DNA of 64,000 nucleotides from Longimicrobiales bacterium (lineage in GTDB: Bacteria; Gemmatimonadota; Gemmatimonadetes; Longimicrobiales; Gaopeijiaceae). Location of the stretch: the NCBI GenBank assembly GCA_965249725.1, contig CBDFMQ010000002.1, forward strand, positions 1,408,001 through 1,472,000. The letters are read 5' to 3'. The position numbers were made by a program. This document shows positions 32,857 to 35,800 of the stretch, one piece after another. The stretch's first letter is position 1, and every line of letters begins with the position of its first letter.

Positions 32857-35800
32857 GTGGCGTCCTTCAGCGTTCGCGTACCGGAAGACACGGGACGCAC
32901 CTCCGCGCCCAGCAGTTCCATTCTGTAGACGTTCAGGGCCTGCCGCGCGACGTCCACCTCTCCCATATAGACCACGCAGTCGAGGTCGAAAAGGGCGCAC
33001 GCGGTCGCCGTCGCCACTCCGTGCTGGCCCGCCCCGGTCTCCGCGATAATGCGGCGCTTCCCCATGCGCCGAGCCAGGAGAGCCTGGCCCATGGTGTTGT
33101 TGATCTTGTGGGCACCGGTGTGGTTCAGATCCTCCCTCTTCAGGTAGATCGCCCCGGACCCTGTGTGTTCTTCGAGTCGCCGCGCCCTGTACAGAGGTGA
33201 GGGGCGGCCCACGTAGTCGCGAAACAACGCACCGAGCTGGGCATGGAACTCGGCATCGGTAGCCGCCGCCTCGTACGCTGCCTCCAATTCGTCCAGGGCC
33301 GCGATCAGAGTCTCGGGGACGTATCGCCCTCCGAAGGACCCGAAGCGCCCTGCGTCGGATTGTGTGCTCATCGTTGCCCTGTATCCGGGATGGATAACAT
33401 GCTTCAAACGTGCTTCAAAAGTGCTTCAACCGTGCTTCAACCGCGCTTCCACTGTGCTTCAACCGCGTTCTCTACGAACGCTCGAATCAAGTCGTGATCC
33501 TTGAGCCGAGGCGCTAGCTCCACGCCCGAACTGACGTCGACCACATCCGGTGAGACGACCCTTACCGCCTGCGCAACGTTGTCGGGGGTGAGGCCTCCTG
33601 CGGCGATCACGGCGACCCCCGAAGGCAGCATGCCACCGACCGCGGAGAAATCATCCCACGCAAAGGACACGCCTCCGCCCCCGGGATGCTCGGGGTGCCA
33701 GGCGTCCAGGAGGAATGCGTCCACCGCGTCGCCGTACTCCCTCACGGCCCGAGCCACGTCCTCCGGCTCGCGGACTCTCACGGCCTTCCAGATCGCCCAA
33801 TCGCCCTTGGCGCGCAACTCCCGAACGAACGCCGGACTCTCCTCACCGTGAAGCTGGATCACGGAAGCACCGACCAGGGTCGCTATGCGGTGCGCTTCAT
33901 CGACGGACTCGTCCACCAGGACGGCCACCACGGGCGTGTCGACGGCGAGGGCGATATCGACGGCCTGATCCGGCAGGAGGCTTCGGCCGAAGCCTTGAGA
34001 GAGGATCATGCCGACGTAGCTCGCGCCCAGTGCCTCGGCGGCCCGTGCATCTTCCGCGGAGCAGATTCCGCAGATCTTGACCCCGATGTCAGCCATGCGT
34101 GCGGGCCTTCCGCTTCGAGCCGGCGAGGATCGAGACCCCCTCGCCGGGATCGTCCTGCCGCAGCAGCGACTCACCCACCAAGACGGCGTGCACGCCCTTC
34201 TCCCCCAACATGCCAACGTCGTCCCTGGTCCGAATACCACTCTCCGACACCAGGACCACCTCCGGTGGGATCCCGGCCAGAAGGCCCAGCGTCACCTCGA
34301 GCCGAGTCTCGAACGTTCTGAGATTCCGGTTGTTCACGCCCAAGAGTCTGGCGCCGGACGCCACACCCCGTTCGACTTCCTCGGCGTCGTGCGCCTCGAC
34401 GAGCGCGGACATGCCCAGTTCTTCCGCCAGGAGTCGGAGCGAGCGGAGGCGTGCGTCGTCGAGGATGCGGACGATGAGCAGGACCGCATCCGCCCCGGCT
34501 GCCCGTGCCTGGAATACCTGGGACTCGTCGATGAGGAAGTCCTTCCGCAACACCGGGAGGTCCACGAGTCCTCTGGCCGCAACAAGGTCTTCGAGAGAGC
34601 CCCCGAAATAGTCCCGGTCCGTGAGGACGCTCAGCGCGGCTGCACCTCCGCCCTCATACATCGGCGCCAACTGGAGGGGGTCGAGATCGGGCCGAATAGG
34701 ACCAGCCCCCGGAGATCGCCGCTTGATCTCCGCGATCACCGCGACCGAGTCGCCCCCACCCACGGCCGTCAGAAAGTCTCTGGGAGGGTCCGCGCGCTCC
34801 GCGGCCGCACGTAGTTCCGGCACCCGGTCCTCGAGCCCCTTCACCTCGTGACGCTTGGTCTCGACGATCCGCTCGAGAATACCCACTGGAGCACTCATTC
34901 AAACCCTCGAGGACCCGTAAGGCCCGACGTACGGCCCGACGTAAGGCCCGACGTACGGCCCGACGTACGGCCCGACGTACGGCCCGACGTAGGGCCCGAC
35001 GTAGGGCCCGACGTGGGGCTCGACGTGGAGTTCGACGTGGAACGCGATGATGCCTGCCCGTCCTTGCGTTTCGGGCAACGTTCGGGTATCGTTTCTTCGG
35101 GTCCTATTCGGGTTCTACCGATACGGAGGCGAACAGCATGCCCCTGACGAAGCGACAAAAAGAGATCCTCGATCTTATTGAGAGTTTCATCGAAGAACAT
35201 GGGTACGCCCCGAGCTTCGAGGAGATCGCGGAGGCGTTCGGGTACTCCTCCCTCGCCACGGTGCATGAACACCTGAGCAATCTGGAACGCAAGGGCTACA
35301 TCCGGAAGGCCTACAATGAGAGCCGCTCCATCGAGTTGGTAGGTCATTCGTCGTCGTCTGGCGGGCTGGAACTGCCGCTCTTGGGTGCCGTAGCCGCCGG
35401 ACTCCCGATCGAGGCCATCGAGGAGCAGGAAACGCTGGCGGTGCCACCGGACATGGTGCGGAGCGGCAGCGACAACTTCGTGCTCCGGGTCGAAGGCGAG
35501 TCCATGATCGACGAGCAGATCCGTGACGGCGACTATATCGTCGTGACCTCGCAACAGACTGCAGCTGACGGGCAGATGGTCGTTGCGCTCGTGGGGGGTG
35601 ATTCCGCCACTGTGAAGAAGCTGTATCGCGAGAACGACGGACGCATTCGGCTGCAACCGGCCAACCCGACCATGAAACCGATTCTGGAGGATCCGAACAA
35701 CGTCAAGATCCAGGGCGTCGTGGTGGGTGTCATCCGGAAGTACTAGAGGGCCCAGGGGCCTTCCTGCCCGCGGAGGCCTTCCTGTCCGCAGCGGCCTTCG

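Follow-up and report, generated by a model that had tools for sequence, protein, structure and literature searches.

The window (the whole 64-kb stretch of DNA that was analysed, from a Longimicrobiales genome hereafter called the source genome) contained a run of trp-like genes at 32178-36867, within which lexA was placed on the opposite strand (Table 1). The + strand of 35064-35140 read TTGCGT TTCGG gcaacg TTCGG g TATCGT ttc TTCGG gtccta TTCGG ... GGAGG ... ATG, and two copies of the direct repeat TTCGG-N6-TTCGG (boxes 1 and 2) were located 27-68 nt upstream of the lexA ATG (35138). A preliminary description had both copies overlap the -35/-10 region of lexA; the two boxes were recovered, but box 1 sat between the predicted hexamers, not over them, and together with base 35086 it made up the whole 17-bp spacer. 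A simple sigma-70 scan of 34850-35900 returned 0 promoters, the lexA -35 being too weak for it, and the promoter was therefore deduced from conservation across the class: (i) a TT-starting hexamer stood directly 5' of box 1 in 84/89 lexA promoters (most commonly TTGCGC, 30, and TTGCGT, 21); (ii) the -10 hexamer 17 nt further on kept T1 in 77/84, A2 in 77/84, and T6 in 80/84; and (iii) box 2 started 24-28 nt after the start of box 1 in 81/83, so that it was not in fixed phase with box 1. Given the hexamer conservation and the box spacing, box 1 would therefore fill the promoter spacer, and box 2 is expected to lie over the likely transcription start of lexA.

Short repeat expansions were common in the source genome: a 12-bp tandem repeat (~9 copies, 93% matches) was found at 34916-35040, where it separates the start of the trpC-like gene from the lexA promoter, and similar 11-12-bp arrays were found at 3637, 5242, 33396, and 59401 of the window. 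Read on the - strand, the repeat at 34916-35040 might be translated as GPYV repeats within a weak 59-aa ORF. Elsewhere in the window, two small adjacent ORFs (84 and 70 aa; 50051-50517) had, by inspection, the look of a HicA/HicB toxin-antitoxin pair.

Table 1. Features of the lexA locus (window coordinates) and matrix matches with other elements of the source genome (C1 to C3, contigs; L numbers, extracted loci)
Feature	Position	Strand	Matrix score (bits)	Basis or remark
Predicted -35 hexamer TTGCGT of the lexA promoter	35064..35069	+		Deduced from conservation
SOS box 1 (predicted operator), TTCGG-gcaacg-TTCGG	35070..35085	+	22.9	Matrix trained without the source genome
Predicted -10 hexamer TATCGT	35087..35092	+		Class-wide base conservation
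SOS box 2 (predicted operator), TTCGG-gtccta-TTCGG	35096..35111	+	24.6	Same matrix
Shine-Dalgarno GGAGG	35125..35129	+		Sequence
lexA, 202 aa	35138..35746	+		TIGR00498
trpD-like gene, then trpC-, trpF-, and trpB-like genes	35812..36867 (trpD-like)	- (trpC-trpF-trpB)		Named by inspecting translations
Second LexA	C3:774660..775313 (L132:4660-5313)			TIGR00498, 114.5 bits
dnaE2			27.9	Top rank, plus a second, weaker site; PRK05672 over cut-off
DUF6504-like ORF, then recX	L034:6521-6829 (ORF)		27.7	ORF unannotated
imuB			23.8	Box ~25 nt before the corrected start
ADOP permease/cupredoxin-like pair			22.3	
HhH-GPD/PA0069 rSAM			22.1	
g2482 (unknown)			21.5	
Serine recombinase (comM island)	C3:640994..663361 (split comM with island)		21.5	
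recA			21.3	One-mismatch variant TTCGC-N6-TTCGG
mraZ	C3:1501368 (L113)		20.6	
g2977/DinB_2			20.0	
Site inside the gene preceding smc			19.8	
DUF11/TPR pair			19.2	
uvrA			17.6	
Cho/UvrC-like GIY-YIG nuclease			17.6	
gyrA			16.5	

The lexA product matched TIGR00498 over its full length (215.1 bits; curated cut-off 110.95) and, when aligned to E. coli LexA, displayed an Ala-Gly cleavage site (A87-G88) and the catalytic residues S122 and K160. Its N-terminal domain aligned without gaps at an offset of one, and within the recognition helix SSLATVHEHL, E44 was the counterpart of E. coli E45. The second LexA (g01834 in the preliminary description, which had it lack the box) passed TIGR00498 narrowly and possessed a LexA DNA-binding domain with Glu at the recognition position (STKTVSEH); the Ala-Gly site and the catalytic Ser and Lys were absent from its pairwise alignment, and no box was found upstream, where the best score was -0.9 (69th percentile), as had been described. 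Having no box, no Ser/Lys, and no Ala-Gly site, it therefore could not be the RecA-cleaved switch, and its sequence suggests that it is probably a non-cleavable regulator. Three divergent extra paralogues (L054, L055, and L056, from two genomes of family f2) had Gln as the recognition residue and lacked a TTCG box; these Gln-type proteins may have a motif of their own.

Raw counts of the motif did not beat chance: TTCG-N7-TTCG occurred 4 times in the window against 2.6 expected (29/100 shuffles reached 4), and TTCGG-N6-TTCGG occurred 27 times genome-wide against 19-47 for other spacers, with no enrichment in either case; the evidence lies instead in conservation and position. The search of the order matched lexA in 149/151 genomes, from which 80 relatives' loci were taken, with 20 more loci from the phylum. 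Upon a scan of spacers 3-15 within 150 nt upstream of lexA, TTCG-N7-TTCG (period 11) was present at 76/81 loci, and spacers 6 and 8 at 4 and 0; counted among the 81 loci were three box-less divergent paralogues and one unpublished genome (G095, left out of the counts thereafter), and the five misses were these three paralogues, L045 (boxes further upstream), and L019. The previously given 29/30 lexA upstream regions with this motif were reproduced (L001 and L003-L031; miss L019). The two half-sites lay in direct orientation one helical turn apart, as in direct-repeat LexA boxes with an 11-bp period, while the palindromic reading was rejected, TTCG-Nx-CGAA and CGAA-Nx-TTCG occurring at no more than 2/81 loci for any spacer. 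The exact TTCGG-N6-TTCGG preceded 88/89 orthologous lexA genes of the class (two copies in 84, one copy in 4, none in 1), a conserved motif in the lexA promoter itself as for autoregulation, and in the non-Longimicrobiales orders of the class it preceded lexA in 12/12. The operator had been ascribed to the order; this was too narrow, given these 12/12 promoters and the Glu-type Patescibacteria LexAs with the exact box (see below). The name of the order was that of the preliminary description; named Longimicrobiales and Gemmatimonadota records grouped among the sampled LexAs in the tree.

Genes of the source genome were called by our own codon model (3753 genes), and a matrix built from 171 sites at 88 other loci, with the source genome excluded, was run over it. 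Among the top 21 matches, 17 were intergenic versus 16% expected (p ~1e-10), and ten belonged to lexA (two sites), dnaE2, the DUF6504/recX pair, imuB, the rSAM/HhH-GPD pair, the serine recombinase, recA, uvrA, and the Cho-like gene (Table 1). Several other top matches, which count against the operator reading, preceded genes with no SOS link (those for the ADOP permease, g2482, g2977, and the DUF11 protein). The claim that a matrix from other genomes ranks SOS genes on top here was borne out, and the targets named beforehand were found among the top ranks with two corrections: dnaE2, imuB, the PA0069 rSAM/HhH-GPD pair, and the comM-island recombinase stood as listed, whereas recA carried a one-mismatch variant, and the 'recX' box lay 357 nt upstream of recX, directly 5' of a 102-aa DUF6504-like ORF (weak match, E 0.004), which replaced recX as the direct target. 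That list also missed uvrA, the Cho/UvrC-like nuclease, and a possible site upstream of the mraZ (dcw cluster) promoter, where there was no divergent gene to explain the site in the source genome; the mraZ box is a possible link between the SOS response and cell division.

Three further observations were made on the surroundings of these sites. The unannotated DUF6504-like ORF was located directly behind a strong box, and imuB, this ORF with recX, and dnaE2 lay within 20 kb of one another with a box each, like a dispersed mutagenesis cassette. The comM gene was split (640994-642037 and 662894-663361) by a ~21-kb island; the boxed serine recombinase stood at the island's left end, next to an IS6-family transposase. 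A near-identical palindromic intergenic repeat containing TTCGG-N6-TTCGG was present at C2:5274, C2:96642, and C1:492279; GC-rich and low-scoring, it is probably a REP-like element rather than an operator.

The genes were then scored individually in 30 chosen genomes (15 from the order, 9 from other orders of the class, and 6 from the phylum's other class), using 250 nt upstream and a background of 3751 source-genome genes (99th percentile, 14.1 bits); these counts are descriptive because kin are not independent. For recA, 19/24 class genomes, with 11/15 in the order, scored at or above the 99th percentile, so that the rate given before (18/25) held; the first half-site was TTCGC or TTCGT in 14/20 positive recA sites, which fits basal recA expression from a weaker first half, and the same tolerance was seen at uvrA and cho in E-type genomes. 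PA0069-type rSAM reached the 99th percentile at 14/20 loci, four of the misses being from one family in which the gene lies, by coordinates, downstream of a DnaE-type gene. Sites before recA and rSAM occurred in either orientation, as expected of a repressor site but not of a promoter element. Among polymerases (30 loci taken of 62 matches: 17 class dnaE2-like, 11 clear dnaE1, and 2 ambiguous), a box of the gene's own within 250 nt was found at 6/17 dnaE2-like genes, so that the earlier 3/3 for dnaE2 was not general, and at 0/11 dnaE1 genes, the negative control. The motif thus preceded recA and translesion polymerases (imuB in the source genome) and was absent at the housekeeping paralogues.

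The remaining genes varied more in box content. The Cho-like nuclease had the box at 6/20 class loci, with 5/5 in the source genome's own family; uvrA had it in 3/24 class relatives and was accordingly rejected as a core member, its membership being lineage-specific; recX was positive at 2/10 scored loci (500-nt windows; 10 of 23 loci scored), and of the other 13 loci (other orders and classes) most lay directly behind recA by coordinates. For mraZ, 5/17 relatives from three families carried the box (300-nt windows; L428-L430, L435, and L440), and for some Gemmatimonadota the regulon may extend to the mraZ/dcw cell-division cluster. Also counting against the operator reading, recA of the phylum's other class had a box within 250 nt in 0/6 with either matrix; the TTCGC matrix gave no site within 250 nt of recA or uvrA there, and cho, scored with the TTCGG matrix, likewise had no site within 250 nt. 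In 5 genomes of that class, lexA and a DnaE-type gene lay, by coordinates, on one strand within a few kb of each other, and LexA may therefore control mainly its own cassette there.

The comparison of lexA promoters and recognition helices was also applied across phyla. In 8 genomes of the phylum's other class, TTCGC(or T)-N6-TTCGC was associated with the helix ATVHKH or ATAHKH, versus ATVHEH in the source genome's class. A profile search from the LexA alignment of that other class gave 595 named loci, of which the best 80 were taken: Lys-type LexAs of Acidobacteriota, Nitrospina, Myxococcota, Binatia, and CSSED10-310 had TTCGC boxes, while Glu-type ones had TTCGG, and many Vicinamibacteria had the variant TTCGC-N6-TTTGC at the same spacer position. 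In Patescibacteria (the phylum of a Saccharimonadia record; 33/61 genomes matched, 30 loci taken), TTCG-N7-TTCG was present upstream of lexA at 12/30 loci and other spacers at 0-1; these boxes were TTCGG with Glu, often filled the -35/-10 spacer, and belonged to genomes of ~1 Mb. In Acidobacteriota (sampled as the class of one Acidiferrales record, which NCBI assigns, like A. capsulatum, to Terriglobia; 35/41 genomes matched, 30 loci taken), TTCG-N7-TTCG was present in 29/30 lexA promoters, and base 5 was C in 63/66 half-sites.

Base 5 was compared with LexA residue 44 in 205 proteins, after four duplicate rows, proteins shorter than 150 aa, and the unpublished genome had been dropped and with the Terriglobia set not included: Glu went with G at 116/117 loci with a site (1 tie) and Lys with C at 61/61, and a further 8 Glu-type and 7 Lys-type loci had no site. 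The box followed TTGnnn directly at 161/181 loci with a site. On a FastTree tree built with the recognition helix left out, residue 44 and base 5 each changed twice, giving 1-2 independent pairs (sign test, p = 1); the association is therefore neither statistically independent nor significant, and statistical proof of residue-base co-evolution was not obtained. The first-half TTCGC/TTCGT tolerance in E-type genomes means, moreover, that the residue-base code is a preference, not a strict rule. Within the same tree, Patescibacteria LexAs grouped among Gemmatimonadetes rows (weak support, long branches), and three Gemmatimonadota LexAs (L103, L233, and L248) grouped with Lys-type Acidobacteriota-like proteins; L103 and L233 had Glu and TTCGG and formed the second independent switch on the tree. 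On balance, we lean towards the view that one LexA lineage (Gemmatimonadota, Patescibacteria, Acidobacteriota, Nitrospinota, parts of Myxococcota/Binatia, and candidate phyla) relies on one direct-repeat operator family, TTCG[G/C]-N6-TTCG[G/C], that sits exactly within the -35/-10 spacer of the lexA promoter itself, with the residue at the E. coli E45 position setting the base (Glu for G, Lys for C).

It is very likely, judging from the sequence evidence, that TTCGG-N6-TTCGG is the operator of the canonical LexA encoded at 35138-35746. The preliminary prediction of a LexA operator with an SOS regulon was well supported by promoter conservation, spacer constancy, matrix ranking, and the dnaE1 control. 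We consider it improbable that another DNA-damage regulator, such as a WYL/PafBC-type activator or the genome's second, non-cleavable LexA-like protein, reads the box and has lexA as one of its targets. Box 1 does lie in the promoter spacer, where some activators bind, and the second LexA shares the recognition-position Glu and the LexA DNA-binding domain; yet the position of box 2 over the start site is that of a repressor, across phyla a change of base 5 goes with a change of residue 44 in the canonical LexA, the box is kept in the ~1-Mb Patescibacteria genomes, and the second LexA itself lacks the box, the catalytic Ser/Lys, and the Ala-Gly site. Still less probable is that the repeat serves lexA as a conserved promoter element or RNA structure and matches elsewhere by chance: the fixed placement relative to -35/-10, a weak G-T-rich stem flagged by a terminator-like scan at 35070-35086, and the unenriched genome-wide counts agree with it, but the box takes either orientation upstream of other SOS genes, shows enrichment at recA, rSAM, and dnaE2 against 0/11 at dnaE1, and keeps its spacer length with a free spacer sequence, and as RNA, box 1 would lie upstream of the expected start and not be transcribed. 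An operator of the divergent trp genes (trpC-trpF-trpB, - strand), with lexA inserted between trp genes, is hardly credible, for although the trpC-like ORF at 34898 has the boxes in its upstream region, at a distance of 170-210 nt, the same box precedes unlinked repair genes and, in Patescibacteria and Acidobacteriota, is always tied to the lexA promoter.

If TTCGG-N6-TTCGG is the operator of canonical LexA, a LexA dimer would bind a pair of directly oriented half-sites (5'-CCGAA-3' when read from the opposite strand) that lie 11 bp from each other on the same helix face; at lexA, the -35/-10 spacer would be occupied by one dimer and the start site by another, resulting in auto-repression. Upon DNA damage, RecA-ssDNA would stimulate A87-G88 autocleavage by S122/K160 and so release (i) lexA, recA (from its weaker one-mismatch site), dnaE2, imuB, the DUF6504-like/recX pair, and the PA0069 rSAM/HhH-GPD pair, and (ii) the Cho-like nuclease, uvrA (lineage-specific), and the comM-island recombinase, the last allowing damage-induced excision. 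Repression at the spacer and start site with release by RecA-stimulated cleavage is what established LexA biology would predict here. Residue 44 in helix 3 probably reads the outer base pair, Glu selecting TTCGG and Lys TTCGC: with the half-sites written as CCGAA and GCGAA, Glu would act as hydrogen-bond acceptor for cytosine and Lys as donor to guanine. On the 11-bp direct repeat, one of the DNA-binding domains would have to be rotated compared with binding to a palindrome, and we know of no solved structure of a two-fold-symmetric LexA dimer on a direct repeat. Thliveris and Mount reportedly assigned recognition of the first operator base pair in E. coli to E45 in 1992. E. coli E45 is a named base contact in helix III (PMC3091678), and E45K lost specific binding to the recA box (bioRxiv 10.1101/2020.07.14.201889).

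Among known boxes, those of Patescibacteria and Acidobacterium are the closest. For Acidobacterium capsulatum, the LexA box is likewise a direct repeat with period 11 and a TTC core, and it was reportedly published as GTTC-N7-GTTC by Mazon et al. in 2006. In our Terriglobia sample, in which A. capsulatum was not identified among the rows, GTTC-N7-GTTC preceded lexA at 0/30 loci, and G stood before TTC in 7/66 half-sites; Terriglobia LexAs share the helix SSLATVH-x-HL with the Gemmatimonadota LexA but differ by C at base 5 and Lys at the E45 position. Direct-repeat LexA motifs of Patescibacteria (Sanchez-Osuna, Barbe, Erill 2017, PMID 28618189) and Acidobacterium (Mazon et al. 2006, PMID 16549674) are cited in PMC7739468, and Table S2 of PMC8565304 lists experimentally validated LexAs from a Collierbacteria (Microgenomates) genome, a Parcubacteria genome, and A. 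capsulatum. The Gemmatimonadota box, like the boxes of our Patescibacteria scan, is TTCGG with Glu, and it is probably the Patescibacteria motif validated in 2017, the identity of consensus being drawn from our own scan; Gemmatimonadota differ in phylum, in a larger regulon, and in having two boxes at lexA.

Other known boxes resemble it in part. The alphaproteobacterial GTTC-N7-GTTC, as given in PMC3323433 and PMC8565304, has the direct repeat, period 11, and TTC core in common with the Gemmatimonadota box, but the Gemmatimonadota sites leave the base preceding TTC free (G in 20/171 first and 70/171 second halves) and fix the GG that follows TTC, so that the sites do not show the alphaproteobacterial G before TTC in both halves. 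The (C)GAAC half-site of Gram-positive GAAC-N4-GTTC resembles the CCGAA reading, and CCGAA would align with CTGTA of the E. coli box CTGT-N8-ACAG, where E45 contacts a base; both of these boxes are palindromes, in contrast to the Gemmatimonadota lexA sites. The Balneolaeota direct-repeat box TTACACATATTTTWTACATA, found by comparative genomics and validated by EMSA (PMC7739468), has a half-site sequence unrelated to TTCGG, and its regulon, like that of Gemmatimonadota, includes recA, translesion polymerases, and a radical SAM protein. The PMC8565304 supplement had no match to 'Gemmatimon', and a search for the TTCGG motif or a Gemmatimonadota SOS regulon in the literature within reach (which excludes subscription journals, theses, and bioRxiv supplements) gave nothing relevant. 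The TTCGG operator is thus new for Gemmatimonadota in the searchable literature, while direct-repeat 11-bp SOS boxes were already known and the TTCGG motif itself has probably been published for Patescibacteria.

Gemmatimonadota are common soil and marine bacteria whose genomes are known mostly from assemblies, and the motif gives them a ready regulon of translesion synthesis, recA, the PA0069 radical SAM/glycosylase, a Cho-like nuclease, and damage-triggered island excision. The cross-phylum operator family with a one-residue switch is the more interesting lead and of wider value: a switch of one residue and one base offers a cheap, direct way to test how LexA specificity changes in evolution and how a dimer with two-fold symmetry recognises a direct repeat. 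If this family is real, the residue-44 switch would be the natural counterpart of the laboratory E45K specificity mutant, and the Acidobacteria box would be TTCGC-N6-TTCGC, not GTTC-N7-GTTC as in Alphaproteobacteria, and the published inference that lexA was transferred from the latter would be weakened.
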